The notes under the pieces were generated by a model. The model was not told the DNA's origin, did not search any database, and saw only the letters and a list, made by a program, of their open reading frames with translations. Below, piece after piece: positions 1,081-15,035 of a DNA stretch of 15,035 bases; the stretch's first letter is position 1; each line of letters opens with the position of its first letter. The position numbers and the translations under genes are program-made. Source of the DNA: a virus (lineage: Duplodnaviria; Heunggongvirae; Uroviricota; Caudoviricetes); the IMG/VR virus record IMGVR_UViG_2565956611_000003, positions 1 through 15,035 of that record, one strand, 5' to 3'.

Positions 1081-2738
1081 ACCCCATCAAATGCCGCAAG
1101 TCGCTCTTTCTGGCTGTCGCTCATATCAAATGCAAATTCCTCATGCTCAGCCTGGAATGTGCCAAACGCCATCAGCGCCGCAACGCTCGGGTCTATCTTA
1201 TTGGATGATTTTTTCTTGTTCGGCTTGATATTGGCGTTCGCGTCACTCTGCATCACAACATTACTCATTGACCAGGCCAGCACCGGATCACCACGATGAA
1301 CAATCACCTTCCGGTTAACAAAAACTTCGAACGATTTCGCCGCCGGACTAAAACGAAGGTACGTTTGCGGGAACGGCTCCACCTCAAATCCCGCTCCCTG
1401 TAGCTGCGTCCTCAGGTGCGTGGCGTTCCATGTATCGAAACCCACCAGCCTGATATTGAAATTCTCTGCATCCGCCATGATGTCATCACGGATACGGTCA
1501 TAATCAATGCAGTCACCCGGTGTTGTGCGTATCCAGCCCGCCTTTGCCCACTGGCGATAGATGGCGCGGTTTTTATTGGCAGGGTTCTGTAGCTGAAATT
1601 CCGGTAGATAGTGACGTGAAACCAGCATAATCTTTTTACCGACCGGAAAGGCATAGCACACGCTGGAAATATCGCTGGTTGATGATAAGTCCAGCCCCGC
1701 ATAGCACTCCTGCCCGTATAAATCCGCCTCAGCGAACGTTCCGGCGCACTCCGCCCATGCACCGTTACCCATCCACGGCGTAGCCCCCTGACACCAGATA
1801 TTGAATCGCTTGGTGAGCATTTCCACCCACTGCGACGGAATACCCCGCGCTTTCTGGATGGTTGAGGCCAGTTTTTCACGATCGACGGAAACATCGATAT
1901 TGGGATTCGCCTTTATCCACATCGCCGGATCGTCAACCTCGCTTTCATCATCCAGCTCGTAAATCAGTACGAACATGGATTCGTTCACCTCTTCACCATC
2001 CAGTATCTGGCAGCAATAGTCGTAGTGTTGTTTACAGGCTGAAACAACGTTGCTCCCCGATGTGGTGATGGCAAATAACAGCCCCTCCGGACGCGCCCCC
2101 ATCCCCAGTTCAAGTGCGGAATAAACCCCGTTGTCTGGGTGCAGGTGATATTCATCCACAATGGCAAGACTCGGGTTTGTCCCCTCAATGGTTGCCGCTT
2201 TTGCTGCCAGTGGCTTTAACAGGCTGTTGGTTTTCGGGTGTATCACCTTGTGCGCCTGAATATTTACCCGCTTTCGTAACGGTCGGGATAAAAGGCACAT
2301 CTGACGCGCATCATCAAACACGATCCGCGCCTGATCACGACTCACGGCGGCGGTGTAAATATCCTGCTGCCCGTTTTCCATAACCAGAAACCAGTTAGCC
2401 AGGATAGCGGCGACCGTGGATTTGGCATTTTTTCGCGGTACTTCAATGAATGCGCTGGTGTATTTGCGCCGTCCGGTGGCCTTAACCTTAAATCCCAGGA
2501 TGCAGGCAAAGGCGAACTGCTGCCACGGCTCAAGTTCAATGGGGCTACCGCGCATTGCGCCTTTTACGTGCGGGCACACCCGGGAAAAGGCAATAAACCG
2601 CTCCACGACCTCCGGATCGAACGTGTAAAGGGAGTTTTCAAGGTCAGAAAAATACCGTTTAACAGCCTGTTTCAGTCGTTTACAGGCCGTAATTTTGCCG
2701 TTTTTTACGCCTTCTGCGTACTCATGCCAGGCGGTCAA
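1077..2738 (-). CDS. terL: Terminase large subunit (Terminase_1 / HK97-like family)
   Basis: 553-aa ORF with a Walker-A-like motif (VPRKNAKST) near the N-terminus and typical TerL size. Start is TTG at 2738 preceded by a strong SD (AGAGGAAGAGGA) and overlaps the terS 3' end by 17 nt. Sits directly after TerS and HNH. Confidence 0.9.
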   Translation of the reverse strand: MTAWHEYAEGVKNGKITACKRLKQAVKRYFSDLENSLYTFDPEVVERFIAFSRVCPHVKGAMRGSPIELEPWQQFAFACILGFKVKATGRRKYTSAFIEVPRKNAKSTVAAILANWFLVMENGQQDIYTAAVSRDQARIVFDDARQMCLLSRPLRKRVNIQAHKVIHPKTNSLLKPLAAKAATIEGTNPSLAIVDEYHLHPDNGVYSALELGMGARPEGLLFAITTSGSNVVSACKQHYDYCCQILDGEEVNESMFVLIYELDDESEVDDPAMWIKANPNIDVSVDREKLASTIQKARGIPSQWVEMLTKRFNIWCQGATPWMGNGAWAECAGTFAEADLYGQECYAGLDLSSTSDISSVCYAFPVGKKIMLVSRHYLPEFQLQNPANKNRAIYRQWAKAGWIRTTPGDCIDYDRIRDDIMADAENFNIRLVGFDTWNATHLRTQLQGAGFEVEPFPQTYLRFSPAAKSFEVFVNRKVIVHRGDPVLAWSMSNVVMQSDANANIKPNKKKSSNKIDPSVAALMAFGTFQAEHEEFAFDMSDSQKERLAAFDGV

Positions 2739-3078
2739 GTTCGTCCTCTTCCTCTGTTTCCGGTGGATTTCTGCGACGGCTTACCGGGTCAAAACCCAGC
2801 AAAGAAGCCATTTTGATCATTATTCTTTCTGCGTCAGCCTTTGCGCTCAGTGCGGGGTTTCTGCTCTCGCTGCCCTGACTGTTAACAATGCTGAACCCGC
2901 GCGTCGCAAGGTCTTCGACGGCTTTGCGGTATATAGAGTAGTTAACGCAATACAGTTCCAGATTGCTCCAGTCGGCGGGGGTAAGGTCTTCCCGCCCGGA
3001 AAGCTGGCGTGATTTTTCCTTCCACTGCCTGACCGCGATTTCATCCAGGTAAGCGGGGGCTTTTGGTGGTCTTGCCAT
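2722..3078 (-). CDS. terS: Terminase small subunit, P27 family
   Basis: Translation from the internal ATG at 3078 (MARPPKAPAYLDEIAVRQW...LELYCVNYSIYRKAVEDL...RNPALSA...GFDPVSRRR) fits the P27-type small terminase pattern. The ORF-track N-terminal extension to 3219 has non-protein-like composition and would cover the putative cos region. Confidence 0.8.
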   Translation of the reverse strand: MARPPKAPAYLDEIAVRQWKEKSRQLSGREDLTPADWSNLELYCVNYSIYRKAVEDLATRGFSIVNSQGSESRNPALSAKADAERIMIKMASLLGFDPVSRRRNPPETEEEDELDRLA

Positions 3079-3129
3079 GTTCTTTTTTCGCCCAATTATT
3101 TTCAAAAAAATTACCGTGCACAAAAATTT

Positions 3130-3189
3130 GAGGGGGCGGTCGGTGTCCGGCAGGGACGGTTTCGTCCTGAAAACCACCCCCACCCCCTC
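3130..3189. other. Candidate cos / packaging recognition region between HNH and terS
   Basis: 288-bp non-coding gap (3079-3366). GAGGGGG (3130-3136) and CCCCCTC (3183-3189) flank a GGACG-GTTT-CGTCC hairpin (3154-3167), with C5 tracts at 3176-3187. HNH-cos-terS-terL is the usual layout of HK97-like cos phages. Confidence 0.35.
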
Positions 3190-3366
3190 TGACGGCCTCA
3201 CCAGCGATTGCGAAAACATTCCATGACCTCGCGGTCACGGTCGGTTAATCGCTTCGCTGTGGTGCGTTTTGTGCGCCCTGTCCTGTTGGCTTTGTGCTCT
3301 GTCTCCTGTGTCTTCCATGTGTCACGCTGCCTTATCAGTCCACGTATCAGCCTGGTTTGCTCCTGT

Positions 3367-3807
3367 TCAGTCATCATCGCCATACATCCAGTTGTTACGG
3401 TGTGCCGCCCGTTCTTCCTGCTCGCGATACATGCCCGCTTTACGGTTTGCTTTCGTGGCTGGATCTTCTCGTGTCGTCTTACGGTTGTGGCACGTCTGGC
3501 ACAATGCCTGGTGATTCCACTCAGGCCAGAAGAGAACATCACCGCCGCCATTGATGGGAATGATGTGATCCACCACAAGAGCTGGCGTATAAATCCCCTT
3601 AGCCAGACAACGCACGCATAACGGGTTTTTGCTCAGGTACAGGGCGCGGTATTTGTCCCACTGTCGGGAATACCCGCGCGCGCGGCGGTGTCCCCGTCTG
3701 GCATCCTCTGCACGCCATGCAGCCCGCCTGTGCTCTTCACACTTGCCGGACTTCACGCGCTTATTACAGCCAGGCTCAGTGCATCGCCTTAATGGTTGCC
3801 ACGGCAT
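3367..3807 (-). CDS. HNH endonuclease (terminase-associated, phage packaging type)
   Basis: 146-aa ORF with CxxC...DHIIPINGGG...N...CQTCHNRKT, a classic HNH zinc-finger nuclease motif. ATG at 3807 overlaps the connector stop by 1 nt. Located immediately upstream of terS. Confidence 0.85.
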   Translation of the reverse strand: MPWQPLRRCTEPGCNKRVKSGKCEEHRRAAWRAEDARRGHRRARGYSRQWDKYRALYLSKNPLCVRCLAKGIYTPALVVDHIIPINGGGDVLFWPEWNHQALCQTCHNRKTTREDPATKANRKAGMYREQEERAAHRNNWMYGDDD

Positions 3808-4109
3808 CAGTACACCCCTACGTCACGATAAACTGACCAGAGCGCAGAAATAGCCATAGGCAGTTCCGAGTGCTCCACTGGTGAAACCGCTTCCCGGTTC
3901 TCGTACAGGAAAGCGATGTACATCAGGCAACCAACACGCATTGCCGGGGTAAATTCCAGCCCGTCTTCAAAACGTTTCCCGATATGCTTCTGGCAGGCTT
4001 CCAGCGCCGCATCGGTATACATTTTCAGAAGTTCGCCTTCACCGGATAAATCATCATCAAGTCGAAGATGTGCCCTGACTTCATCAGGTGTAATTCTGGC
4101 TTCACTCAT
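3807..4109 (-). CDS. Head-tail connector / adaptor protein, gp6-like
   Basis: 101 aa from ATG 4109 (MSEARITPDEVRAHLRLDDD...LLKMYTDAALEACQKHIGKRF...), matching the gp6-like head-tail connector pattern. SD GGGAGA lies in the portal 3' end; 8-nt overlap with the portal stop. The ORF-track GTG start at 4196 would sit deep inside the portal gene. Confidence 0.75.
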   Translation of the reverse strand: MSEARITPDEVRAHLRLDDDLSGEGELLKMYTDAALEACQKHIGKRFEDGLEFTPAMRVGCLMYIAFLYENREAVSPVEHSELPMAISALWSVYRDVGVY

Positions 4110-5316
4110 CTTTTCTCCCTTTAATTTCCACAGTCTGTTTCCATGCCTGGCTGAACTCATCACCACCTTCACGCGGCGGCATACCCTCACGCTCACGGGC
4201 TTCGTTCGGATTCATGATCCCGTTCTTAATCCCTTTCTCATACGTGGCATAACGTTCGGTGGGTGTGGCGCGTAATAAATCGGCTGAATCAAACTCAACC
4301 AGATAACGGGTACCAGGTACGGGAGAAGCCACCAGCAAAGCGGCCTTGATTTGCTGTTCGAAGTTCGCCAGCCACGGGCGCATTGTCATGGTCAGAAACG
4401 CGCGGCTTGCCTCGCTGAAATTGCTGTAGGTGCTGTTGCTGTATTCCTGCAGAAAAATAGGCGATACGTTGAACATGCGGGCGATGTCTTCAATGGAGAA
4501 GCGACGGGAGGCCAGCCATTCCGCATCCTGGTTACTCATTCCCAGTTGCCTGTAATCCATGCCCCCTTCAAGGATTGGCGTTTTTCCGGCATTTTTCGCC
4601 CCCTTGTAGCGTTCCAGAGCATCCAATGCCTGTTTACCTTTCACGCCGTCCAGCCATTCGCCTGACGTGATAATCCCTGCCGCCATCATGCCATCTTTCA
4701 TAATGCTGGCTCCGTGACGCTGTTGAGCAAGGCCAAGCCCCAGCGCCTCACGGCAAATCGTGACGGGGGAACGCCCCAGAAAGCCATCATCCGAGGCATA
4801 GCGGAGATGCAAAACTTCTTCCTGTAAATACGTGCGCACCGTTCCTGTACAGGGTTCGGTGATGGTATAGCGGTATTTGTGTGCGCCTGTGCGTTCCGGT
4901 ACAACACACCCCGGCGCATAAGGATGAAGTGATTTTGGCTGCCCGTCCTGCCCCCACTCAATAACCGCATAGGCGTTACCGTTCAGCAGGCAGTGACGCA
5001 TCATTGTGCGTTTAAACTGGTAAGGTGTCTGGCACGAATTAGGCTGCTCATTCAGCAGAATATCTACTGGGTGACTGTCCAGCCATTCCCGCGCCTCCCT
5101 GCCCTTGTCATTACGTACCAGATACAGATAACACGGCATCGTGGCCACCGCCTCAGCGATGACAGAAACCGCATTCATCACTGCAGGCAATGATTCAGCC
5201 GTCCCGGCAGAAACATATTCTCCGGATCCGGTATTCGGTACGCCGGACAGCGCCAGAAAATCATCAATGGACAGGTTACGCTGCTCGCTTTTTTTACGAC
5301 TAAAAGGCCACCACAT
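4102..5316 (-). CDS. Portal protein, HK97 family
   Basis: 405 aa from ATG 5316 (MWWPFSRKKSEQRNLSIDDFLAL...), 1 nt after the protease stop. Size and position between protease and connector fit a portal. The ORF-track TTG start at 5406 would overlap the protease gene by about 90 nt. Confidence 0.85.
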   Translation of the reverse strand: MWWPFSRKKSEQRNLSIDDFLALSGVPNTGSGEYVSAGTAESLPAVMNAVSVIAEAVATMPCYLYLVRNDKGREAREWLDSHPVDILLNEQPNSCQTPYQFKRTMMRHCLLNGNAYAVIEWGQDGQPKSLHPYAPGCVVPERTGAHKYRYTITEPCTGTVRTYLQEEVLHLRYASDDGFLGRSPVTICREALGLGLAQQRHGASIMKDGMMAAGIITSGEWLDGVKGKQALDALERYKGAKNAGKTPILEGGMDYRQLGMSNQDAEWLASRRFSIEDIARMFNVSPIFLQEYSNSTYSNFSEASRAFLTMTMRPWLANFEQQIKAALLVASPVPGTRYLVEFDSADLLRATPTERYATYEKGIKNGIMNPNEAREREGMPPREGGDEFSQAWKQTVEIKGRKDE

Positions 5317-5317
5317 A

Positions 5318-5878
5318 TCACAACCCCGCCAGCTCAGACCAGCGATGACGATTATTTCCTGTCGGACGTAATTCAGGGTGCTGTGCAAACAACGAACGGT
5401 GGGCAATCTCCACGCCAGATTCTGGATAAGCAGGCATCGACGTTATTGTGATTTCACGGAGTTCAGCGGCGGTTACGGTACGCAGATACGGTTTTTGCGC
5501 GATACTCCACTCCTCGCATAATGCGCGAAAACCAAAGCTCATTCCTGTAATGTCGCCACGCTCCACCAGCGTAAGCACATCTTTTCCAAGCTGGGTATCC
5601 GGCGGTGTCAGTTCAAAACGTAACCCGGTGTTATCCTCAGTCAGTACCAGAGTGCCGGATTTGGTGCGCCCCAGCAGTTGGGTATAGTCATGCTCATACA
5701 GGCAGCGCACATCATTACCCGTCGCCAGATAGTCAGCAAAAGCCCCCGGCGTGAACTGTTCGCGGAATTCGTCCCAGATAATTTCTGAAAGGCTGTTCCA
5801 GCGAACGGCATACCCCACCAGCTTTTTATTGCTGGCGGTCAGTTCAGATGTGCGGATTTCAAAATCGGTGTTTTTCAT
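5318..5878 (-). CDS. Prohead maturation protease, HK97 family (S78-type)
   Basis: 186 aa with VGYAVRWN...H...ITGMSFGF motifs typical of HK97 prohead proteases. ATG at 5878 with GGAG 8 nt upstream. Confidence 0.85.
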   Translation of the reverse strand: MKNTDFEIRTSELTASNKKLVGYAVRWNSLSEIIWDEFREQFTPGAFADYLATGNDVRCLYEHDYTQLLGRTKSGTLVLTEDNTGLRFELTPPDTQLGKDVLTLVERGDITGMSFGFRALCEEWSIAQKPYLRTVTAAELREITITSMPAYPESGVEIAHRSLFAQHPELRPTGNNRHRWSELAGL

Positions 5879-5897
5879 CGGTGTACTCCATAAAGCT

Positions 5898-5920
5898 GAA
5901 AAAGGAGGCCGCAGCCTCCT
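5898..5920 (-). terminator. Intra-operon stem-loop plus U-run (attenuator-like) between capsid and protease genes
   Basis: On the minus-strand transcript, 7-bp stem AGGAGGC/GCCTCCT with 4-nt loop, followed by UUUUU, in the 54-nt gap after the capsid stop (5933) and before the protease start (5878). Confidence 0.5.
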
Positions 5921-5932
5921 CCTTACTCATGA

Positions 5933-7102
5933 CTAGCCAGCTTTCATTTCCAGAATTTTGATGGCGTTTGAATCCACCACACCACCGCCCAGATATTTAT
6001 CCGTGTGGACCTTGTAGAATCCGGGTTCAGTAATGTTGTCCGGTCGGGTGCGAATCCCTGTTACATGATCAACGATGAAATAACCACGACTGAAATCGCC
6101 AACCGCTAGCGGTGCTTTTCCTGCGCCGATGTCCGGCATGGACTCCAGGCAGTAAACAGGACGACCAAGCAACATATCCGGCGCACCTTCTTTAAGGCTG
6201 TCGCGCCAGATATAATCGCCGTTCTCATTTTTCAGCTTCTGTAGTGTCCCTGCCGTGCCCGAGTTCATCACCCAGACGGCATTTTTGCGGTATTTCGCTT
6301 TCAGCTTGTAGAGAATGTCGATCAGTTCGTCCGCTGTAATGGCGGTTCCACTTGCCGCTACTATTTTTTCAATGGTGCCAAAAGCGCGGGTTTTGTCACT
6401 GGTCGCCGCACGGGTGTAAGCCATGAAGCCTTTCGGCTTGCCGTTACCGTCGCCATTAACAAAATCATCCTCTTCGGTGCTGGCGAACGTGTCGGCAATT
6501 TCGGAGGATAACCAGCCCAGAATATCCACCTCTGAAAAATCCAGGATTTCCTGCGTGGTTTTCGGGTAGGCGTAGATCGGATTCAACTTGATGGTTACGC
6601 GTTCAATTTTCGGGGTGTTGGTTTCACTGCGTGCGCTGCCTTCTGTGCCTCGTCCTACAGTTGCGCCGCCAGTGGAAACCAGTTTCTGAAACTCATTTGA
6701 TTTTGCGGTCTTCACGGTCGCGATCACGCGCATAACACTGTCATCCTGTAGCTGGCGCATGACTTCGCGATCAAGCTCAGGAATTACGGTATATCCGCCA
6801 TCCCTGCCGCTGTCAGTGCTGGTGGACAGTGATCGCACATCTCCGGTTACGATGTAGTTACGCAATTCATCAGATGATAATTTCTGGATGCCCGTTCCTG
6901 GCTTGCTGCGTTCTTCATCAGCCACAGACTCGAGGCGGGAAATTTCTGTGTCGAGGGCATCAGCTTTTGCACGCAGTTCATCAAACTGTTTGCCTTCTTC
7001 AGCGTTCAGACTACGGTTTTCACTGTCGGCTTTTTCCAGCAGGGATCGCATCTGGTTTTTCAGGGCGTTTTTTTGCTGGCGGAGTTCGATTAATTTCTTC
7101 AT
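5933..7102 (-). CDS. Major capsid protein, HK97 family
   Basis: 389 aa with an N-terminal coiled-coil delta-like region (MKKLIELRQQKNALKNQMRSLLEKA...) and a body containing DFVNGDGNGKPKGF, typical of the HK97 fold. First gene of the head operon. Confidence 0.9.
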   Translation of the reverse strand: MKKLIELRQQKNALKNQMRSLLEKADSENRSLNAEEGKQFDELRAKADALDTEISRLESVADEERSKPGTGIQKLSSDELRNYIVTGDVRSLSTSTDSGRDGGYTVIPELDREVMRQLQDDSVMRVIATVKTAKSNEFQKLVSTGGATVGRGTEGSARSETNTPKIERVTIKLNPIYAYPKTTQEILDFSEVDILGWLSSEIADTFASTEEDDFVNGDGNGKPKGFMAYTRAATSDKTRAFGTIEKIVAASGTAITADELIDILYKLKAKYRKNAVWVMNSGTAGTLQKLKNENGDYIWRDSLKEGAPDMLLGRPVYCLESMPDIGAGKAPLAVGDFSRGYFIVDHVTGIRTRPDNITEPGFYKVHTDKYLGGGVVDSNAIKILEMKAG

Positions 7103-7388
7103 GAAGGTTTTCTCGTATTGGTTAAGATTCAGGACGTGAAACCAACACGGGGGGAGCGCCGCCCGACACTCTCGGCATCTCGCAGATCAACCCGGCATCG
7201 CGCAGGGGGTCAGGCGGCATTGTGGCGGCTCACGTCTGAGTGCCACGCTCCAACATATACATAAAAATCAGTATGTAAACACCTGTCAGTCAGACCGAAC
7301 AACCACGAAAGAACACGAACAAATAATTTACAAAAGAAGTAAACCATGGCCTATTATTGCTGTCTCTGACTACAACAAAGGACGCATC

Positions 7389-7895
7389 ATGAATTTAAGC
7401 GCAATGGTATATCCTGATACTTTCATAATTAATGGCGAATCATTCAGAGGTAAAAGAAACGCAAAAGAAAACAAGGTATTAATTCCATATACAAATGAAC
7501 CGGAAGTAACTATTGGTCAACACATTATCCAGCGTGTCGGTAAAAACGAGATAAATCTAAAAATTATAGATATGAAGTTGCTTCCCAATGGAACCCGCAG
7601 ACAGGGAACCAATCATCCAAATATGTTGACTCTCTATATTGAAAATATCACGGGAAATGAACATATGACGCCAACTAAAAGTAATACATTTAACATTGGT
7701 TCAATTAGTGGTGATCAAGTGCAGATAGGTGAGCATAACCATATGCTGGTAAACATCAGCATCACTGAACTGGTTGAAAAAGTCGCTAAATCGGGGGATG
7801 TACAAGCCAAATCAGTATTAAAGCAGTTACTGGAAAACAGTACCGTTGCCAGCATTGTTGGGGCTGGCGCAAGTGCCCTAATAGGCTTACTGTAA
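7389..7895 (+). CDS. Hypothetical protein (168 aa), AT-rich cargo gene with hydrophobic C-terminal segment
   Basis: ATG 7389 with AAGGA 7 nt upstream. Visibly AT-rich compared with flanking genes. The C-terminus (STVASIVGAGASALIGLL) is hydrophobic and Gly/Ala-rich. Stand-alone plus-strand gene followed by a strong terminator. No family recognised. Confidence 0.6.
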   Translation: MNLSAMVYPDTFIINGESFRGKRNAKENKVLIPYTNEPEVTIGQHIIQRVGKNEINLKIIDMKLLPNGTRRQGTNHPNMLTLYIENITGNEHMTPTKSNTFNIGSISGDQVQIGEHNHMLVNISITELVEKVAKSGDVQAKSVLKQLLENSTVASIVGAGASALIGLL

Positions 7896-7932
7896 AAAAA
7901 TGGCCTGGATTTTACCAGGCCTTTATTATTTT
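7896..7932. terminator. Bidirectional rho-independent terminator
   Basis: GGCCTGG (7902-7908), loop ATTTTA, CCAGGCC (7915-7921), flanked by A8 upstream and TTTATTATTTT downstream, so U-runs on both strands. Sits between the convergent 168-aa gene and the minus-strand replication-module operon. Confidence 0.7.
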
Positions 7933-8227
7933 ACCGTTTCACGGGATCTCGCATTCTGCGCCTTATTTTCCACAGATATTCGATCATCGCTTCCACCTGC
8001 TCACGGTTGGTTGCGAAAATTTCCCCGGTCAGTGAGCTACGCAGAAAATCATGATGATCCACAACAAACAACGCATCGGAAGAAAGCAGACGGCGATATT
8101 TTTTTGCTGTCATGGTTTCCAGATCATCAAAATCATGAAACTTTTTATGTTGCTGGACTTCTTCAAATGTCACTGGAATGTCCCCTCTGTTGTCGCTAAA
8201 ACGGTATGTTGTCCCCGTACGGATCAT
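7931..8227 (-). CDS. Hypothetical protein (98 aa)
   Basis: Protein-like composition; last gene of the minus operon running from the iteron region; overlaps the SSB 3' end. The start is ambiguous (ATG 8227 or ATG 8113) and no strong SD is seen. Confidence 0.45.
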   Translation of the reverse strand: MIRTGTTYRFSDNRGDIPVTFEEVQQHKKFHDFDDLETMTAKKYRRLLSSDALFVVDHHDFLRSSLTGEIFATNREQVEAMIEYLWKIRRRMRDPVKR

Positions 8228-8621
8228 CGTGCTGACCCGTCTGCTGTTTTGCCCTGTTCAGTGCGTCAGTGGCCTGCCCCTGCTGGCCTTTTTTGCCGCC
8301 CGGTCGCGCTGTTCGCGCACTGATCACGCTGTCTGCGATAACCTGCCAGCCCTGCCGCGTTTCGCCGTTCTGGCCTGTCCACTGGCTTACCTGCATGTTA
8401 CCCGCCACGCTCACCAGTTCGCCTTTGTGGTGTTTTGCCAGTGCGTCGGCCTGTCTGCCAAACGCCAGGACGGATAACCACATCATCGCCGTTCCGTCAT
8501 CTGCCTGGCTGCACGGAAGGGGGACCGCCATACTAGCCATCGTCATTTGTGTACCCTTGCTGGTGGTCTTTAACTGCGGGTCAGCCACCAGCCGCCCGTA
8601 AGCCGCTATCTGTGCTGTCAT
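8196..8621 (-). CDS. ssb: Single-stranded DNA-binding protein (SSB-like, OB-fold) with acidic C-terminal tip
   Basis: 141 aa. The C-terminus ends ...DDPYGDNIPF, resembling the conserved SSB tail (DDDIPF). The N-terminal region aligns by eye to the SSB OB-fold (IAAYGRLVADPQL...; WLSVLAFGRQADALAKHHKGELVSVAGNMQVSQWTGQNGETRQGWQV). ATGA overlap with the upstream ORF. Confidence 0.7.
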   Translation of the reverse strand: MTAQIAAYGRLVADPQLKTTSKGTQMTMASMAVPLPCSQADDGTAMMWLSVLAFGRQADALAKHHKGELVSVAGNMQVSQWTGQNGETRQGWQVIADSVISARTARPGGKKGQQGQATDALNRAKQQTGQHDDPYGDNIPF

Positions 8622-8863
8622 GCTGTCTGCTCTCCGGTTTTAACGTTGATGGTTGTCACCTGTTCCGCTTCGGCAATCTCCCGTTCTGTCAGCGTGGCAA
8701 AGTTTGCAGCTGCCGTTGTCATGAATGCGCTAATCAGTTCGGGATGTGCTTTCGCATATCCTTCCCCGGCGTTGCGGTCGATGATTTTTATCGACACCCT
8801 TAACCAGTGTTCCGTCAAATCAAGGGCGTGCGATTGTGATTTTTTTGTGTGCTTCGCTGTCAT
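8618..8863 (-). CDS. Hypothetical protein (81 aa), first gene of the operon leaving the iteron region
   Basis: ATG at 8863; translationally coupled to ssb (ATGA). No family recognised. Confidence 0.45.
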   Translation of the reverse strand: MTAKHTKKSQSHALDLTEHWLRVSIKIIDRNAGEGYAKAHPELISAFMTTAAANFATLTEREIAEAEQVTTINVKTGEQTA

Positions 8864-8908
8864 AGGCTTTATCTCACAGCAGTAAATTAAAATTTTTGCG
8901 TTTTAACC

Positions 8909-9136
8909 CTTCACCTGTTCACCTTTTGATATTTTCCATTTAAATTCATACTGTTAAGGGGTGAACAGTTTCACAAAAACTATTCACCAACTGTTCACCA
9001 CTGTTCACCCTTGAAGCTCAATAAACAACCAAAAAGGTGAACAGTGAATAGTTTGGTGAACAGTTCATAAATAACTGTTCACCCTATAATATACTGATAT
9101 AAAAGATAATTATGACAGGCTGAACAGTGGTGAACA
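8909..9136. repeat. Iteron array / candidate origin of replication (P4-type TGTTCACC octamers plus AT-rich segment)
   Basis: Eight perfect octamers: TGTTCACC at 8916, 8992, 9002, 9076 and the reverse complement GGTGAACA at 8960, 9036, 9055, 9129. Degenerate copies near 8909, 8981, 9044, 9119. AT-rich stretch with TATAAT at 9085-9118. Lies directly 3' of the primase/helicase gene. Confidence 0.8.
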
Positions 9137-9150
9137 GTTATTCAATAAGT

Positions 9151-10968
9151 TTAATTTTTGCTATCGTCATTAGTGACCGATACACATGATGGCATCCAGT
9201 CTTCTGATTCCTCCGTCAGTGTCACGTTTGAACGAAAACCGTGCTTCGTTTTCCGTTTCATATACTCCCTGCCATATTCCGCCATTGCCCCCGGCATATC
9301 TTTACCGAAGCGCGTCAGTGTTACAGGTTTACCAAACCCATGTGCCCTCATATAAGCCAGATAGGCATGATAGAGATACCTGCGTGGGCTGAATGGCACA
9401 ATTTCAGCATTACCCACTAACAGGCCATCACACATTACCGACGCCATGAGATAGCCGCAGAAGTCCACCAGCGAATCCCCCTCTCGCTTTATCGCCAGTG
9501 CTTCTTCAGATTTCTGCTGCTCATATAACAGGCGTCTGGCTTCGTCCTGGTCAGCAAACCGTGTAAGCAGATGGCGAATCACTACCGCCAGCTCACCTTC
9601 TATTTTTTCCGCCAGCATTGGATCGCGTTCGTTCTCCGGTACAACTTCCGAAAAATTGAATATCACCCGACGACGTGAGATCCCCCCGCTGCGGTCACTG
9701 AATGACATGGCGTTATTGTTAACCGCCAGCACTACTGCCGGAATACGCGTTGAGTAGGGGGCTTTGTGTTTCGGGTCAATTGCCACCTTGTCACCGCCTG
9801 TAATAGCCTTAATCCCTGCCCCATCACCAGCGTAGCGGGTCATATCCGGCATGATAATCAGCGAAAAGCCAACCACTAACGCGCGTTCCCTTGCATCTTC
9901 CAGCGCCTTCATGCTTGCCGATACTGTGTTGGCCTTACCCGCCAGCATGGTGCAAATCTCCGCCATCACGCTTTTACCACTTCCCCCTGGACCTGTTACC
10001 TCAATGAATAACTGCCAGTCGTACCGGTTCGCCAGCACCATGAATAATGCAGCCAGTACGCGATCCGCCTTGCGGTCATTCTCAGCCACCGAACGGCGTA
10101 ACCACTTCCAGAAATTCGGCGCATGTGTTGCCAGCGTTTCCCCCTCTGCTGGTGGGCTGAAAGGTAATTCACTGGCAATTAACAACCAGTCGTTTTTGTT
10201 ATGCTCCCGAAAATTACCTGTTCTGGTATCAAATACCCCGTTACTGAATCCAATCAGGTTACGGGCTGTATTCCCCATTACAGGCAAACTTAACTTCATG
10301 GTATCGACCGCCGATTTAATGGCGTTCTGCGAATAGCTGATCTCCGCATCAATGAAAATCTGTGCCATAGCTCGCTGTAATTCTTTATCCTGTACTGGCT
10401 CCCATACAACGCCGTTGTAATGGTGAACAGTGTCAGAGTCAGCATGAATCGCCAGTTCACCGCCATAATGTGCCAGGAGAACTTCGCCGCGTTGACTTGC
10501 TCCCATCTGGTTAAGCGCCAGTGATGAAGCGTTATCGTCTTTTACCCGCTCTTTTTTCTTTACAGGCAGTTCAACTACCTTTTTCTTTTCCGCCTGCTCT
10601 GCCCGTTCACGTTCCAGATATTCGCGCCAGTTCTCCCGTTTCTGGCTGTGCATTCCTTCAGGGTAATAATCAGCATCCCTGACACCTGCCACTGCCAGTT
10701 TCTGCCCGATGGTATTAACAAGCCCCGGACGCAATAACCCCGCCTGATAGAGACGCACGCGATAGCGTCCGTCCGATACGATTTGCAGGTTGTCCAGTTC
10801 GGCAAGTTGTTGCTCTCCAAGCCAGACAGGTGGCACGTTATCGCCAGCCAGTCGCCCGTCCTGTTCCTGCCACTGTTTCGCATGTGCCCACGCATCACTA
10901 CCCGCAAAAATGATGACTTCCGTCATTTTGTCACGCGGCTGGTGTTTTAAATTTGGCGCTTTTTTCAT
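9151..10968 (-). CDS. Replication initiator, primase/helicase type (P4 alpha-like / D5-like SF3 helicase with Walker A)
   Basis: About 605 aa from ATG 10968 (SD GGAGAGAG upstream; ATGA overlap with the preceding ORF). Walker A motif TGPGGSGKS mid-protein; large multi-domain protein next to the iterons. The ORF-track start at 10983 is GTG. Confidence 0.8.
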   Translation of the reverse strand: MKKAPNLKHQPRDKMTEVIIFAGSDAWAHAKQWQEQDGRLAGDNVPPVWLGEQQLAELDNLQIVSDGRYRVRLYQAGLLRPGLVNTIGQKLAVAGVRDADYYPEGMHSQKRENWREYLERERAEQAEKKKVVELPVKKKERVKDDNASSLALNQMGASQRGEVLLAHYGGELAIHADSDTVHHYNGVVWEPVQDKELQRAMAQIFIDAEISYSQNAIKSAVDTMKLSLPVMGNTARNLIGFSNGVFDTRTGNFREHNKNDWLLIASELPFSPPAEGETLATHAPNFWKWLRRSVAENDRKADRVLAALFMVLANRYDWQLFIEVTGPGGSGKSVMAEICTMLAGKANTVSASMKALEDARERALVVGFSLIIMPDMTRYAGDGAGIKAITGGDKVAIDPKHKAPYSTRIPAVVLAVNNNAMSFSDRSGGISRRRVIFNFSEVVPENERDPMLAEKIEGELAVVIRHLLTRFADQDEARRLLYEQQKSEEALAIKREGDSLVDFCGYLMASVMCDGLLVGNAEIVPFSPRRYLYHAYLAYMRAHGFGKPVTLTRFGKDMPGAMAEYGREYMKRKTKHGFRSNVTLTEESEDWMPSCVSVTNDDSKN

Positions 10969-11264
10969 TTCTGCTCTCTCCACGCGGCAATCATGTTTTT
11001 TAGTTCCTGTAGTTTTTTATCAACATCCATACATGACACATGGTTATTTCTGGAAAGCGGGATTTCCCGACTGAATCTGCTAATAAAGATCTCCACGTTC
11101 AGCGAACTAAGAAATGAATAGCCATCACGGATAAAATACACACGGTCAAACATCAGTTCTTTTACCGTTACTCTGTTACCGTTCTTATCCAGATAAATAG
11201 CGCCGGGGATAATTTGGGGGTGTGCATAACCGCTGGCAGTCAAGCCAGATAAATACGTTCTCAT
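10965..11264 (-). CDS. Hypothetical protein (99 aa)
   Basis: ATG at 11264; stop overlaps the primase start (ATGA). Moderately AT-rich. No family recognised. Confidence 0.5.
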   Translation of the reverse strand: MRTYLSGLTASGYAHPQIIPGAIYLDKNGNRVTVKELMFDRVYFIRDGYSFLSSLNVEIFISRFSREIPLSRNNHVSCMDVDKKLQELKNMIAAWREQK

Positions 11265-11270
11265 GATTAT

Positions 11271-11591
11271 TTATCCCCGATTTGAATCAGTATTCGCTTT
11301 CTTTATAGCATTTAATGCATCTGTGGCATTTTCAATGGTGCACCGTAACGAAATATCAAAATGTCCAAGCATTGCCAGTAACAAACCGATATTACCCATA
11401 TCAATGCGCATGGCCTTTTCGTCATAGTCCTCATTTTCTGACGCATGCCACATCAGGCTACCAATTGACGCAACAGCCATTGATATATTGTCAGTAGCCC
11501 CATCCGCAGCGGAATAAACCTTTTTAGCAATATCATGCTCACAGTTAAAATGCGGATTAATCAGGTACTGGTAATTTGACATATCAGGCAT
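11271..11591 (-). CDS. Hypothetical protein (106 aa)
   Basis: ATG at 11591 preceded by a G7 run acting as SD; 6-nt gap to the next ORF. No family recognised. Confidence 0.5.
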   Translation of the reverse strand: MPDMSNYQYLINPHFNCEHDIAKKVYSAADGATDNISMAVASIGSLMWHASENEDYDEKAMRIDMGNIGLLLAMLGHFDISLRCTIENATDALNAIKKANTDSNRG

Positions 11592-11787
11592 GGCACCCCC
11601 CCTGACGAATACGGGCGGCGAATACCATCACGCAGCCAGCCGGGGATTGCTGGCGTGCTTCCTGTTCGCTGCTGGCCTCAATGGTAATCACGCGCGGTTG
11701 TGCCGTGCTCAGGGCGATAAAACGCCAGATGTATTTATTCAGGTTGTACGAGTCCCGCCCTTGCGGGTGTATGGTATGATTTCTCAT
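11584..11787 (-). CDS. Hypothetical small protein (67 aa from the internal ATG; ORF-track version starts at a TTG at 11877)
   Basis: ATG at 11787 with GAGG SD. First gene after the leftward promoter. The 3' end contains the G7 tract and overlaps the next gene by 8 nt; it may be the N-terminal part of a frameshifted longer gene. Confidence 0.4.
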   Translation of the reverse strand: MRNHTIHPQGRDSYNLNKYIWRFIALSTAQPRVITIEASSEQEARQQSPAGCVMVFAARIRQGGCHA

Positions 11788-11885
11788 AGCTGCCTCGATA
11801 CTCTCGTTATCGTTGGTGGTTAGACGCCCCGTATGTGTTTCCGGCACTGCGGGGCGTTGCTCTTTGTATTTCAACAATCCTTTCG

Positions 11886-11963
11886 GTGTGTTTCATGTTA
11901 TGAGCGCATGAAACACACGTCAAGGCTTTTTGTATTTCTTTTTTTGTGTATACTGAAACACAC
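11886..11963. promoter_or_regulatory. Divergent promoter/operator region with three TGAAACACAC sites
   Basis: Perfect 12-bp inverted repeat GTGTGTTTCATG (11886-11897) / CATGAAACACAC (11907-11918) overlaps a leftward TTGACG-17-TAACAT promoter (-35 at 11923-11918, -10 at 11900-11895, minus strand). A third TGAAACACAC (11954-11963) overlaps a rightward TATACT -10 (11949-11954) upstream of the 11985 gene. Confidence 0.5.
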
Positions 11964-11984
11964 CGATGATTAGGAGTTTCAGAA

Positions 11985-12290
11985 ATGGCAACGGCTAACA
12001 AAAACGCAAAATCACAACTGACAACTGTCAGAGTCCCACTAGATGTTATGCAAGGGATGGAATCCGTTAAGCTGGACGGCGAAAGCAATGCCGGATTTAT
12101 CGTAACCGCCATGCGCGGAGAAATAGCCCGCCGCCAAGCAGAAGGCAGCGGAGAAAATCCCCTTGTGTCGTCACTGGATGCCCTGGCTAAGGTCGAACAA
12201 ATCGGCATCAAAGCAGCGGAAGAAATCGGGCAGCTTGTCACCGTTGCACGCGAAGAACTCCAGCGTCGCAAGACCAAAGAACCAGAGTAA
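11985..12290 (+). CDS. Putative small DNA-binding regulator (101 aa; possible ribbon-helix-helix type)
   Basis: ATG 11985 with AGGAG 8 nt upstream; typical enterobacterial codon usage. N-terminal QLTTVRVPLDVMQGM resembles a beta-strand-then-helix RHH start; this is a weak inference. Convergent with alpA. Confidence 0.55.
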   Translation: MATANKNAKSQLTTVRVPLDVMQGMESVKLDGESNAGFIVTAMRGEIARRQAEGSGENPLVSSLDALAKVEQIGIKAAEEIGQLVTVAREELQRRKTKEPE

Positions 12291-12332
12291 TCACCATCAG
12301 CGCCGTGGTGTAAGGTATTACGGCGCATTGCT

Positions 12333-12521
12333 ATGCAGGACAACACAATGACCGATAAAGAATTGACCAAAACATTATCACCGGCACGGAAAAGACGGCG
12401 CAGAAAGATAGAGCATGAATCAGAAAGATTCGCGCCATGTGCTTTTGCTCTTGAGAAATTCCTTAAAGAGCACAGGAAAAAGCTCTCGTTGCAAACCTTG
12501 GAACGAACCAAATCTGACTGA
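12333..12521 (+). CDS. Hypothetical basic small protein (62 aa), doubtful
   Basis: Follows the 101-aa gene and precedes the 12590 terminator; contains an RKRRRRK stretch. Weak SD and several rare codons (AGA, AGG, CGG, ATA). Confidence 0.3.
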   Translation: MQDNTMTDKELTKTLSPARKRRRRKIEHESERFAPCAFALEKFLKEHRKKLSLQTLERTKSD

Positions 12522-12589
12522 TCACATTGCCCACCAGCCGCAAATGTGGCATTGTTGGTGATGCGTTCAAGTTTAGTGTGTATCCATTG

Positions 12590-12618
12590 GCGACCGCCCC
12601 CGGTCGTCTTTGTTTTAT
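12590..12618 (+). terminator. Rho-independent terminator for the plus-strand operon
   Basis: Stem CGACCG (12591-12596), loop CCCC, CGGTCG (12601-12606), followed by TCTTTGTTTT. No U-run on the opposite strand. Confidence 0.6.
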
Positions 12619-12635
12619 ATGTCATATGCTCCCCT

Positions 12636-12860
12636 TTACGCTGCCTTACCTGAATTAACGCGGTCACGGCTTTGCACCCAGTCCATAACTTCGGAAAGCA
12701 ACCAGCCTACAGAACGCCCCCCAAGATTACGGCGAGACGGAAAGCCCCCTTTCTTCTCCAGTTCGTAGCGTGTAGTACGGCTGACGCCTGTTAACTTACG
12801 ACATTCATCCTCACGAATTACGCGATCTGTTAGTGATTGAAATTGTGTATTTTGATTCAT
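12636..12860 (-). CDS. alpA: AlpA-family prophage transcriptional regulator (small HTH excisionase-like activator)
   Basis: 74 aa (MNQNTQFQSLTDRVIREDECRKLTGVSRTTRYELEKKGGFPSRRNLGGRSVGWLLSEVMDWVQ...) matches the AlpA/CP4-57 regulator pattern. ATG at 12860 with GAGGG SD. Position near the integrase is typical. Confidence 0.85.
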   Translation of the reverse strand: MNQNTQFQSLTDRVIREDECRKLTGVSRTTRYELEKKGGFPSRRNLGGRSVGWLLSEVMDWVQSRDRVNSGKAA

Positions 12861-12892
12861 AAAAACACCCTCGAACGTAACCGAACAAGGGC

Positions 12893-12920
12893 ATCTTATT
12901 TACCATAGCAGTTGGTGCAA
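12893..12920 (-). promoter_or_regulatory. Candidate sigma70 promoter for alpA
   Basis: Minus-strand TTGCAC (12920-12915), 16-bp spacer, TAAGAT (12898-12893), about 30 nt upstream of the alpA ATG. Confidence 0.35.
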
Positions 12921-12963
12921 TATTGGAAAAATAAACTTTATTCTAATTTATCGTTCTCCATGA

Positions 12964-13818
12964 TTAATTTTCATTAGATAACATTTTTCTTATTTTTTCT
13001 AAAGAATCGCTGCGCATTATTTTTTCTAAGAAGGGTTTTACAGTCTGAGCAATAGCAAAGGTGTCCTTTTCACCATCAGGATACAAAGATACGGCAAGCA
13101 CCCCTAATGAAATTTTTCTATCTGTAGACAACTCCCAAGATAATAAGTCAATTAATGGGATTATCTTATAATCAATAATTTTACGTCGTATGCTCTCCCA
13201 ACTTCCTGCAATTGGTTTGTCTGGCTCAACAATTGAAAGTTCACTACGCCATTTTGGTAATAGTTTTGTAAACGCTTCAATCAACTCATCATCTCTGTTA
13301 TGTAGTAAGTCAACAGAAACAAGCATATTATCTAATGTATCAGAAAGGAGATTCACTGGTTCACGCATCACAGCCCAAAACATCCCATTATCTTCTGATA
13401 TTAAACTTCCAACCATCTCATTATCTATGATGATTGGTTTATCCTTCCAATATCCTCTTTCCGCAGTCAGTTTATTAATCATTGATATATCAAACCTTGT
13501 TACAGGTTTAATTCCATCATCATAACTTAGCTCAATTAACTTCGGTTGCACTTTATGGTCATATTCTTTTTGTTTATCACAAAACCAATCGTCTTCTTTC
13601 AGCTCTCCAAATGGATCCCCGTAATTATTATGCAACGGGTATTCAGCACCAAACATAAATCCATATTCAGGCATCTCAGAATGTTTCATCGTTAAATCAT
13701 CTTGTCGCCAATATAATTGGCGAAATAGATCTTTATCCGACAAGTTTTCTAGGCAATCATATTTGCCTAAATCAAATGACTTTGGTAAATCTTTTTTACT
13801 ATTTACTTTTTTCGTCAT
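12964..13818 (-). CDS. Hypothetical protein (284 aa), AT-rich cargo gene between integrase and alpA
   Basis: ATG at 13818 overlaps the integrase stop (ATGA) with GAGGG SD. Markedly AT-rich compared with int and alpA. Acidic, soluble-looking protein; no family or catalytic motif recognised. Confidence 0.7.
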   Translation of the reverse strand: MTKKVNSKKDLPKSFDLGKYDCLENLSDKDLFRQLYWRQDDLTMKHSEMPEYGFMFGAEYPLHNNYGDPFGELKEDDWFCDKQKEYDHKVQPKLIELSYDDGIKPVTRFDISMINKLTAERGYWKDKPIIIDNEMVGSLISEDNGMFWAVMREPVNLLSDTLDNMLVSVDLLHNRDDELIEAFTKLLPKWRSELSIVEPDKPIAGSWESIRRKIIDYKIIPLIDLLSWELSTDRKISLGVLAVSLYPDGEKDTFAIAQTVKPFLEKIMRSDSLEKIRKMLSNEN

Positions 13819-15035
13819 TGTATCCCTCTCAATATCACAATATTTTCATTATATCCTGCAATCATATCAAGACGCTCAACCCATAGATTCAGTGCGTCCC
13901 GTTTCGCCTGCAAATAGCGTGAATGGTTATAGGTTTTTTGCTGACCTGGCATCTGATGCGCTGTGATGTGCTCCACGATATGCGGATCGACACCTAAATC
14001 ATTCAGCATAGTTGTAAACGTGTGTCGGAAATCATGCAGCGTCCAGTGTTCCTGCTTAAGCCGCTTATGCGCATTTCGTCCATATTGCGCCACCGTGGTA
14101 TCTTTTTTCAGTTCGCCGAGTAATAACCCAGTGTGTGCGTTTTGCTCCACCAGCTTCTGAATGAACGGCAAAATACCATCAGGAATAGGTCGGAATATTG
14201 TTACCTTCGTTTTGCTGTGCTCTTTTGGCACTGTCCACAACATTTCTTTCAGATCCCATTCTTTGATCTCTGAAAGTCTGATCTCTGCCGTTCTGCACCC
14301 GAACACAATTAACAAGCGCATTAACGCACTGTAATAGGGAGCGAACACATCACCATCAATAGCGCGTAGAATTTCTTTTAGTTCGCTGTTGCTGTGCACT
14401 CTCTCGCGGATTTCTGCTCTCTTACCCACATCAGTAACGATCAAATCGTCCAGGGCGTTGCTAAACGCGTAGCGCCGCCTGCGGCAAAACTTTAGCGCCT
14501 GTTTGCATGTCTGCATGACATGGCCCGCTGCTACTGGTGCTTTTTTTCGTACGCGGTCAAAACATGCGATCCACTGCCTTGTATCACACTTATCAAGGGG
14601 AATTGCCCCAATATGGCAAATGATGTGCTTATCCATACGCTGCACCAGCTTTATGTAATCTTTGCGGTTATCCTTCGCGTATTCCTCCAGCCAGTAGTTA
14701 ATCGCTTCCTTCACCGTAACGGGTTTTAGTGCTTCCTGTACTGTGGCGCACAACTCATAACGGGGGTTTTTACCCTCAGCCAGCCATGCCCGGCACAGTG
14801 TGCGTTTTTCCCTTGCGGCTTTCAGCGACAATTCAGGGTAAGCCCCCAGCTTTAACCGCTCTGCGGCAACCTCACGGCCTCCCGTTCGGTACCGGAAATA
14901 CCAGGTTAATTTGCCGCCCTTTGAGTGTTTAATCTCCAGCCCGCCCCCGTCGGAGTAAAAACGCTCTTTTTCTGCCTGGACAGCCGCCAATTTTTTTAAC
15001 GTCGAATCGCTCAGTTTGTTTAGTGCTTTTCCCAC
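13815..15035 (-). CDS. int: Tyrosine integrase, P4 family (5' end at or just beyond the window edge)
   Basis: 406 aa read to the window edge. C-terminal catalytic region with LHDFRHTF (HxxR) and a downstream Tyr (KTYNHSRYL). The N-terminal region (LSDSTLKKL...LGAYPELSLKAAREKR) resembles P4-type integrase arm-binding domains. The first codon in the window is GTG. Confidence 0.9.
   Translation of the reverse strand: MGKALNKLSDSTLKKLAAVQAEKERFYSDGGGLEIKHSKGGKLTWYFRYRTGGREVAAERLKLGAYPELSLKAAREKRTLCRAWLAEGKNPRYELCATVQEALKPVTVKEAINYWLEEYAKDNRKDYIKLVQRMDKHIICHIGAIPLDKCDTRQWIACFDRVRKKAPVAAGHVMQTCKQALKFCRRRRYAFSNALDDLIVTDVGKRAEIRERVHSNSELKEILRAIDGDVFAPYYSALMRLLIVFGCRTAEIRLSEIKEWDLKEMLWTVPKEHSKTKVTIFRPIPDGILPFIQKLVEQNAHTGLLLGELKKDTTVAQYGRNAHKRLKQEHWTLHDFRHTFTTMLNDLGVDPHIVEHITAHQMPGQQKTYNHSRYLQAKRDALNLWVERLDMIAGYNENIVILRGIQ

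Follow-up and report, generated by a model that had tools for sequence, protein, structure and literature searches.

A small modular protein with a RHIM-like motif and a glycine-zipper tail as accessory cargo of capsid-forming phage satellites

What is the role of a single short gene placed, on the opposite strand, between the capsid and the replication genes of a phage satellite? The question is raised by positions 7389-7895 of a 15,035-nt DNA stretch (IMG/VR record IMGVR_UViG_2565956611_000003, positions 1 to 15,035; the whole stretch is called the window below). The gene found there encodes a protein of 168 amino acids (aa), and an earlier note on this DNA had proposed a moron whose product carries a possible membrane anchor or pore-forming helix. 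The gene is accessory cargo. It lies in a region known to vary, immediately upstream of the packaging module, and its product belongs to a previously undescribed family of modular small proteins on mobile elements. The most telling feature of the protein, absent from the earlier note, is a conserved RHIM-like motif in mid-protein, which the family module joins to a glycine-zipper tail. The cargo interpretation is ordinary in itself; the protein family is the unusual part.

The protein and its motif

The open reading frame (ORF) is a real gene under selection and not a chance ORF, as it has 98 full-length homologues (167-171 aa) and an 87-sequence alignment of the family contains 16 invariant columns. 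No Pfam, NCBIfam or PADLOC match was obtained for the protein (in PADLOC-DB 2.0, no model matched at E<=0.01). Its only family match, over the full length, is phrog_5789, whose function is unassigned. No paper naming WP_001053662, WP_000365446, WP_001293446 or phrog_5789, or describing the family, was found in the literature. An AlphaFold2 model built from the 87-sequence alignment reached a mean predicted local distance difference test score (pLDDT) of 81 and shows three parts, with helices spanning aa 125-167 (pLDDT 82-93). The features of the protein are as follows.

7389-7895, plus strand: ORF of 168 aa, ATG start, stop included (ORF map; full-length phrog_5789 match)
7389-7658, plus strand: N-terminal six-stranded beta-barrel, aa 1-90, pLDDT about 90, the variable "head" of the wider family (AlphaFold2)
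7683-7757, plus strand: RHIM-like motif, aa 99-123, NTFNIGSISGDQVQIGEHNHMLVNI (conservation, Pfam and PDB searches)
7719-7739, plus strand: core VQIG..N of the RHIM-like motif, aa 111-117
7758-7838, plus strand: amphipathic helices, aa 124-150, SITELVEKVAKSGDVQAKSVLKQLLEN (AlphaFold2 helices 125-135 and 138-149, pLDDT 82-93)
7839-7892, plus strand: C-terminal hydrophobic glycine-zipper tail, aa 151-168, STVASIVGAGASALIGLL (hydropathy, conservation)

Residues 93-118 have a pLDDT below 50 despite the conserved stretch NTFNIGSISGDQVQIGEHNHM, which is the best-conserved internal sequence of the protein. The mean column entropy is 0.77 bits in the motif (aa 101-117), against 1.27 in the barrel and 0.68, the lowest value, in the tail. 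Q112, G114 and N117 are invariant in the 87 sequences, and D137, A140, K141, L148 and N150 in the helical part are invariant or nearly so.

The motif contains the core tetrad of RHIM sequences, [I/V]-Q-[I/V/L]-G with an Asn at +3 (V111-Q112-I113-G114...N117). In a Pfam scan with relaxed E-values, RHIM (PF12721) was the sole family matching the window protein (E=0.014, 15.4 bits, residues 110-119). It was also the family matched by most members, i.e., by 7/31 in one set and 7/37 in another, with a best E-value of 4e-4. A profile of the motif only (28 columns, 23 diverse members) was searched against 177,635 distinct PDB sequences. Six matches were retrieved, namely two RIPK1 RHIM peptides (E=0.02), three RIPK3 RHIM constructs (E=2-3) and one flagellin (E=0.19). 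The motif thus appears RHIM-like in sequence, at a marginal level.

The hydrophobic Gly/Ala-rich C-terminus described earlier is borne out. The last 17 residues, TVASIVGAGASALIGLL, have a Kyte-Doolittle mean of 1.91 and form the sole strongly hydrophobic stretch of the protein, and in nearly all family members the protein ends where the tail ends. Small residues occupy every fourth position (A154, G158, S162, G166), a glycine-zipper pattern which is typical of self-associating membrane helices. The protein is not a recognisable holin, since its single hydrophobic segment lies at the very C-terminus and no charged tail is present; lysis genes were not found in the island.

Several fold assignments were tried and set aside. 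PilZ domains gave fold scores similar to those of neck proteins, but conservation of their RxxxR / D-x-S-x-x-G signature is lacking: its spacing differs by one position, and K replaces S in the window protein. The sole match of the whole profile in the PDB was a CsrA-like fold (E=0.12), obtained partly through a His-tag aligned to HPH, and it is judged a chance match or at best a local hairpin resemblance. A fold search of BFVD gave no meaningful match (template modelling scores <=0.35). Head-closure and head-tail adaptor families (e.g., PF05521) were not matched by profile either, and the gene lies outside the packaging operon.

A polymorphic slot upstream of the capsid gene

The window is a phage satellite with its genes laid out on the minus strand, according to the ORF map and Pfam matches. 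The order is integrase, DUF6387, AlpA-type regulator, Icd-like, DUF4222, D5-type primase, SSB and two small genes, followed by HK97-type major capsid protein, prohead protease, portal, connector, HNH, TerS and TerL. As this is the gene set of phage-inducible chromosomal islands of the capsid-forming kind (cf-PICIs), which depend on helper tails (bioRxiv 10.1101/2022.09.08.507074), the window is assigned to the cf-PICIs. The island between thiM and rcnR in E. coli SMS-3-5 is 100% identical to it, and the copy of the gene in that strain is annotated as a hypothetical protein (WP_001053662.1).

The occupancy of the slot was counted in 5426 complete E. coli genomes. A 1151-bp query with the gene and both flanks matched 162 genomes, while the gene itself was present in only 51/5426. 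An uninterrupted empty junction was counted in 68-77 genomes, and empty slots are found, for instance, in loci L002 and L004 and in the prototype cf-PICI EcCIEDL933. In 9-10 genomes, another gene with the same orientation fills the slot (L003 2798-3271, L005 3530-4003); it is unrelated, and its 157-aa product WP_001293446.1 has no Pfam, NCBIfam or PHROG assignment. A two-gene version occupies it in 20 genomes. The earlier note had asked whether related islands carry different genes at this junction, which they do, and had reasoned that conservation in all related elements would make it a core gene; the empty islands show that it is not. EcCIEDL933 is transferred by helper phage HK106 (bioRxiv 10.1101/2022.09.08.507074). 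Since that island lacks the gene and is nevertheless mobilised, the gene is dispensable for satellite capsid formation and transfer. Hence, the gene behaves as accessory (moron) cargo, being present, absent or replaced at a fixed site in syntenic islands. On either side of the cf-PICI packaging operon, according to the Penades lab, lie regions that are variable and "expected to encode immune systems" (bioRxiv 10.1101/2025.02.11.637232).

The moron label holds with one correction. Homologues with 51-79% identity occupy this very slot in cf-PICIs from Klebsiella, Pluralibacter, Kluyvera, Winslowiella and Proteus, as well as in two metagenomic islands; a profile scan of genome contigs for family loci gave 6 loci. 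This recurrence from Escherichia to Proteus indicates a long-standing preferred cargo and not a one-off acquisition.

The borders of the cargo were read from alignments of occupied and empty islands.

7336-7895, plus strand: cargo cassette, consisting of a leader of about 53 nt and the ORF; missing from empty-slot islands (occupied/unoccupied alignment)
7378-7382, plus strand: Shine-Dalgarno sequence AAGGA, 6 nt before the ATG (read from the sequence)
7103-7335, no strand: divergent intergenic backbone upstream of the capsid gene, ending in TTTACAAAA; kept in empty and occupied islands
7902-7921, no strand: bidirectional intrinsic terminator, hairpin GGCCTGG-ATTTTA-CCAGGCC, with an A-run before and a T-run after; scores on both strands
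7341-7352 and 7895-7906, plus strand: 12-nt direct repeat, left copy AAACCATGGCCT, right copy AAAAAATGGCCT, 10/12 identical (family D4)

Backbone identity ends after TTTACAAAA (7327-7335) and restarts at the A-run and terminator. The terminator, with its 7-bp GC-rich stem, sits between the 168-aa gene and the convergent 82-aa gene at 7931-8179. Empty islands retain the hairpin, with compensatory changes in the stem, so that it is a backbone terminator of the replication-module operon and lies outside the cassette. The strong bidirectional terminator claimed earlier is therefore real but does not insulate the cassette specifically. The direct repeat that brackets the cassette may be the scar of an insertion, although a short repeat in two copies may also arise by chance. 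Its right copy overlaps the start of the terminator, and its left copy looks like a degenerate A-run followed by the left half of the stem, which suggests that insertion of cassettes takes place at the terminator. A similar AAAAAAT duplication was seen at the 157-aa cassette of L003. The left-flank backbone at 7290-7335 (…CCACGAACAAATAATTTACAAAA) was found in 406/5426 complete E. coli genomes, far above any single cargo type, and offers a handy marker of the cf-PICI hot spot.

The AT-richness and the separate ribosome-binding site described in the earlier note were both found. The gene has a GC content of 0.379, compared with 0.488 for the whole window and about 52% in the flanks. Over 7201-7800 the value is 0.365-0.40; the capsid module has 0.51-0.53 and the SSB region 0.52-0.61. 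In all hosts examined, the gene is AT-richer than its surroundings. It is the sole plus-strand gene between 1077 and 11877; the claim of a sole plus-strand gene is limited to that interval, because two small plus-strand genes lie further right (11985-12290 and 12333-12521). A consensus scan gave no plus-strand promoter for the gene; the only promoter-like site that it returned lies on the minus strand (7279->7252). Visual inspection shows TTTACA (7327-7332) and TATTAT (7352-7357) upstream of the gene, with a 19-nt spacer between them, a pair that would be weak at best. Rfam and tRNA scans of the window gave no matches.

Three further observations concern the islands themselves. Of all genes in the island, the DUF6387 gene (12964-13818, minus strand), flanked by the integrase and AlpA-type regulator genes, has the highest AT content (GC 0.338), and it may be another accessory or variable gene. 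At 3807-5316, a connector is present and no Phage_HCP (head-closure) gene lies between connector and portal, while EcCIEDL933 and several related cf-PICIs have one (compare L023 4615-4953, L024 4687-5025, L025 1-298); this difference is consistent with the variable connector/adaptor region reported for cf-PICIs (bioRxiv 10.1101/2025.02.11.637232). Lastly, a cf-PICI-like segment forms the end of the 106.5-kb record of "Klebsiella phage P12620-1" (L013, PQ569648.1 96498-106503); it holds HNH, connector, portal, protease and capsid genes together with a homologue of the window gene. The record may be chimeric, or the satellite may have been co-assembled with a phage.

A C-terminal module on many heads and a motif-bearing partner

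A profile search of 1.84 billion representative proteins retrieved 241 relatives. Many of these (about 145-250 aa) match only profile positions of about 90-168, and their N-terminal parts are related neither to the barrel nor to each other. The last 70 aa or so form a module which is fused, across Gammaproteobacteria, to at least 10 unrelated types of N-terminal domain, including zinc ribbons, DUF2513 or winged-helix-like domains and helical domains. The consensus of the module is NIGxIxxxxVQVGNxNxQ..NIxxxELVEKVAxSxDxEAKSxLKxLLENSTVASxxGAGASxLLxLL, and the protein ends there. Across the relatives with variable N-termini, G114 is invariant and Q112, N117, A140, K141, L148, N150 and G158 are nearly so. 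P0095-P0097 are about 80% identical to typical members in the module and carry different heads, which points to recent head swapping. Such a fixed C-terminal part under changing heads is what one would expect if different sensors were coupled to one shared effector. When a 5.8-billion-protein set was searched with the module, most matches were fragments, and none was a large NLR-like protein carrying the motif. Among the relatives with other heads, P0156 lies on a 2.8-kb contig. In some relatives (P0171, P0173, P0182), the wholly hydrophobic tail gives way to an ending of the form …E[VL]L[AL]KLFGG. These endings, which resemble the amphipathic membrane-targeting sequence of MinD, hint that the tail may bind membranes in an oligomerisation-dependent manner.

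Homologues outside satellites are found in a P2-like prophage of Pseudomonas, at its cargo end, and in variable chromosomal regions of Xanthomonas and Shewanella. A 28%-identical relative lies between the Rz and terminase genes of a lambdoid E. coli phage, i.e., at the lysis-packaging moron site. Candidate defence families of PADLOC adjoin three of these homologues: PDC-S31 (E=2e-23) in Xanthomonas, PDC-S60 (E=2e-30) in Shewanella and a subtilase (E=6e-24) at the end of the Pseudomonas prophage. The loci with such neighbours are L006 (7278-9922), L009 (8900-9844) and L010 (8655-9494), and a weak HEPN_RiboL-PSP protein is encoded directly upstream in the Pseudomonas locus.

In some islands, the slot holds two genes on the same strand. 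A protein of 236-254 aa is encoded first, with the 168-aa homologue immediately downstream.

L015, E. coli MS20657: 4263-5027 (partner) and 5057-5566 (168-aa homologue)
L019, Winslowiella: 6924-7658 (partner) and 7704-8207 (168-aa homologue)
L023, metagenomic cf-PICI: 8199-8954 (partner) and 9001-9507 (168-aa homologue)
L024, metagenomic cf-PICI: 8268-8978 (partner) and 9001-9507 (168-aa homologue)

The partner has a conserved helical N-terminal domain followed by the same RHIM-like motif, e.g., FNIATVNSQYVQLGTNNN. The partners form a series, from a full canonical module (P0265) to proteins in which polar sequence replaces the hydrophobic tail, and N..Q.G..N is invariant throughout. As in the 168-aa protein, the AlphaFold model of the partner drops below a pLDDT of 50, here exactly at the motif. 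The fold of the N-terminal domain proved uninformative, being a generic helical bundle whose best matches are designed repeats and RRF. Sharing of a motif between adjacent genes is a hallmark of amyloid signalling pairs (bioRxiv 10.1101/2020.01.06.895854). Over seven cognate pairs, motif identity was 8.86 within pairs against 7.88 between pairs, of 21 positions, and 120/5040 permutations in an exact test reached the observed sum; as the pairs are few and phylogenetically related, this result is only suggestive.

Possible function and rival explanations

What might such a protein do for the island? Our preferred reading, to which we give a rough probability of 0.4, is that the 168-aa product is a single-protein effector of abortive infection or exclusion, switched by RHIM-like self-assembly. 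The N-terminal head would keep the protein soluble or inert until a cue is bound. This cue would probably be an oligomeric late phage product, and the neck-protein-like fold hints at a head or connector component. Crowded copies would then assemble homotypically, nucleated through the RHIM-like motif, and the resulting array of weak membrane helices would insert by its glycine zippers and cause the inner membrane to collapse. The island would gain from this, as a competitor phage would be stopped or the helper limited. Where the slot holds two genes, the partner without a tail might serve as sensor or template, or as a cap. Amyloid or homotypic assembly, membrane insertion, toxicity, a phage trigger and an anti-phage effect are what we infer from computational evidence that is consistent and individually marginal.

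The closest parallel is Bab/Agp of E. coli ECOR25, in which signalling through the amyloid motif BASS11 (one of the bacterial amyloid signalling sequences, BASS) drives a membrane-targeting abortive-infection response (Ibarlosa et al., bioRxiv 10.1101/2024.11.07.622273). Like Bab, the window protein is a small E. coli protein borne by a mobile genetic element at a prophage/satellite defence hot spot. It likewise consists of a globular domain, a G/N/Q-rich beta-motif of about 20-25 aa, left disordered by AlphaFold-type models, and a hydrophobic, putatively membrane-targeting helix. An adjacent gene with the same motif is found in its relatives L015, L019, L023 and L024, as in Bab/Agp. In contrast to Bab, the motif is RHIM-like and internal, whereas that of Bab is BASS11 and C-terminal. 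Similarly, a C-terminal Gly-zipper helix and a beta-barrel take the place of the N-terminal helix of a Bell domain and of the helical Bell domain itself. The window gene is solitary and has neither a TPR-GreA/B-PIN partner such as Agp nor an NLR partner.

BASS3/RHIM-like pairs of Bell and NLR proteins were reported specifically from multicellular bacteria, the Actinobacteria and Cyanobacteria (Dyrka et al., bioRxiv 10.1101/2020.01.06.895854). They share with the present family the phi-Q-phi-G core, Pfam RHIM matches below or at the threshold, and, at some loci, a motif common to adjacent genes. Their motifs are situated at the C-terminus of Bell effectors and at the N-terminus of NB-ARC/NACHT NLRs. 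The present family differs in its unicellular gammaproteobacterial hosts, the lack of NLR and Bell proteins, the internal position of the motif and the spacing G-x-x-phi-Q-phi-G.

The RHIM of RIPK1 and RIPK3 (8ib0, 9m6m, 7dac, 7da4) has the same core, [IV]-Q-[IV]-G-x-x-N-x-[ML]. It reads VQIGEHNHM in the window protein, IQIGNHNYM in RIPK1 (8ib0) and VQVGDNNYL in RIPK3 (7dac). The proposed logic, in which homotypic assembly would lead to membrane-permeabilising death, is also analogous, although no kinase or MLKL-like partner is found and the Pfam gathering score is not reached.

Two further systems offer partial parallels. Cap15 of the cyclic oligonucleotide-based antiphage signalling system (CBASS) is an effector made of a beta-barrel and membrane helices, and the C-terminus of MinD is a membrane-targeting helix that depends on oligomerisation. 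With Cap15, the window protein shares a small beta-barrel coupled to short membrane helices, the domain order being reversed; no CD-NTase or other signal generator lies nearby, and there is no similarity to PADLOC models. With MinD it would share the idea that multimerisation turns a weak membrane affinity into a strong one. Tail assembly inhibition (Tai) and other moron defences are located at the lysis-packaging junction (He et al. 2024, PMC11364771). Like Tai, the gene is small, single, unrecognised by PADLOC and found both in the accessory region of satellites and at the lambdoid lysis-packaging junction. Tai, however, has neither a hydrophobic tail nor a RHIM-like motif, and its slot in PICIs is beside pri and not beside the capsid gene. 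The two families are unrelated (hhalign probability 0.15% against TaiEcA, phi80 orf63). HepS (Nature 2026, PMC13043305), also considered, is a HEPN nuclease and not relevant.

Several findings weigh against an amyloid-switched effector. All RHIM statistics are marginal, and the window protein, at 15.4 bits, stays under the 20-bit gathering threshold of Pfam. The motif is short and N/Q/G-rich, and the flagellin among the six PDB matches indicates that ordinary folds contain such strings too. G-phi-Q-phi-G, the canonical form, is not matched exactly, as two extra residues are present (G-D-Q-V-Q-I-G). The resemblance to RHIM, about ten residues long, may reflect either homology or convergence. 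The motif is also internal (aa 99-123 of 168), while it is terminal in BASS, HET-s and RHIM adaptor systems. The BASS architecture of an effector with a C-terminal motif, an NLR/TGP protein with an N-terminal motif and a helical Bell domain was not found; neither the loci nor the 241 relatives yielded an NB-ARC, NACHT, TPR or PIN partner, and no NLR or Bell partner turned up. Since several RHIM and BASS features are lacking, the family should not be filed under either. Furthermore, the window gene is solitary: no other ORF of the window matches the profile hidden Markov model of the motif, so that two-protein "signalling" cannot apply to it directly. Two adjacent products share the motif in the relatives L015, L019, L023 and L024. 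The tail counts only 17 hydrophobic residues and is amphipathic or charged in some relatives; instead of forming a pore, its helix may bind the membrane peripherally or form bundles. Matches of the PADLOC or DefenseFinder type are absent, and recurrence at the same slot across cf-PICI genera would suit a satellite-specific role as well.

Some of these points would suit a protein that does not kill at all. The motif could be an ordinary oligomerisation or beta-hairpin element, e.g., of a strand-swapped dimer, that AlphaFold misses only because a monomer was modelled. The protein would then be constitutively tail-anchored in the inner membrane and act by superinfection exclusion or by interference with DNA entry or assembly. 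Its tail at the extreme C-terminus fits a tail anchor, and exclusion genes are common at moron sites of prophages and satellites (see also PMC11364771). The weak CsrA match of the full-length profile (E=0.12) falls on the GxQVxIG hairpin, but leans in part on the His-tag/HPH alignment. The flagellin match and the sub-threshold RHIM scores likewise favour an ordinary element, whereas five of the six PDB matches are RHIM amyloid cores and the motif is retained in the tail-less partners, with similarity within pairs. Moreover, Sie-type proteins usually have N-terminal or multiple transmembrane helices. On balance, such an anchored exclusion protein is unlikely, though the likeliest of the rival readings.

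The position of the gene suggests a role in the life cycle of the satellite or in its dealings with the helper. The barrel would mimic a head-closure or stopper protein and bind helper portal-adaptor complexes. It would thereby cap or sequester helper heads at the membrane and spare tails for the cf-PICI capsids, or it would tune the timing of lysis. Indeed, the gene is divergently placed beside the region upstream of the capsid operon, the same slot holds homologues in cf-PICIs of six genera, and cf-PICIs need helper tails (bioRxiv 10.1101/2022.09.08.507074). However, EcCIEDL933 is functional without the gene and 68-77 E. coli genomes have an empty junction, homologues also lie far from capsid genes (Xanthomonas and Shewanella chromosomes, P2-like prophage), and L023 and L024 carry a true Phage_HCP gene besides the 168-aa homologue. 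As the part conserved in the family is the C-terminal module and not the barrel, helper interference of this kind appears improbable.

The weakest explanation, a decoy modelled on the viral RHIM proteins that block necroptosis, whose motif would co-assemble with and poison an amyloid-signalling defence of the host to protect satellite or helper, can draw on viral and bacterial pathogens that subvert host RHIM signalling through RHIM motifs (bioRxiv 10.1101/2024.11.07.622273) and on the tail-less, motif-keeping partners, which indicate that motif-only "capping" variants evolve in the family, but is very improbable given that no motif-bearing host protein outside the family was found in the 1.84- and 5.8-billion-protein sets, that BASS11, a different motif, serves the one amyloid defence known from E. 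coli, that a strictly conserved hydrophobic tail would be needless and that the neighbours are defence candidates and not anti-defence genes.

A broader claim is bolder, and we hold it to be doubtful. Satellites and prophages of unicellular Gammaproteobacteria would possess a RHIM-type functional amyloid switch in which one polypeptide combines sensor, amyloid motif and membrane helix, a tail-less partner acts as template or cap, and the C-terminal module of about 70 aa is a portable cell-death effector domain mounted on at least 10 heads. In effect, this would be analogous to the logic of the necrosome and MLKL or of NWD2/HET-S.

RHIM-like motifs have so far been tied to animal necroptosis, to fungal PP motifs and to NLR pairs of multicellular bacteria. 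If the self-assembling effector is the right reading, such a motif would also work in mobile elements of E. coli, in a much simpler, one-gene architecture of 168 aa. The C-terminal module, which has no annotation as yet and is missing from Pfam, NCBIfam and PADLOC, would become a defined, portable effector whose sensor heads can be exchanged, and the variable region upstream of the cf-PICI capsid operon would gain a concrete occupant. Even without the amyloid idea, a dispensable, horizontally shuffled cargo gene with a conserved membrane tail stands.

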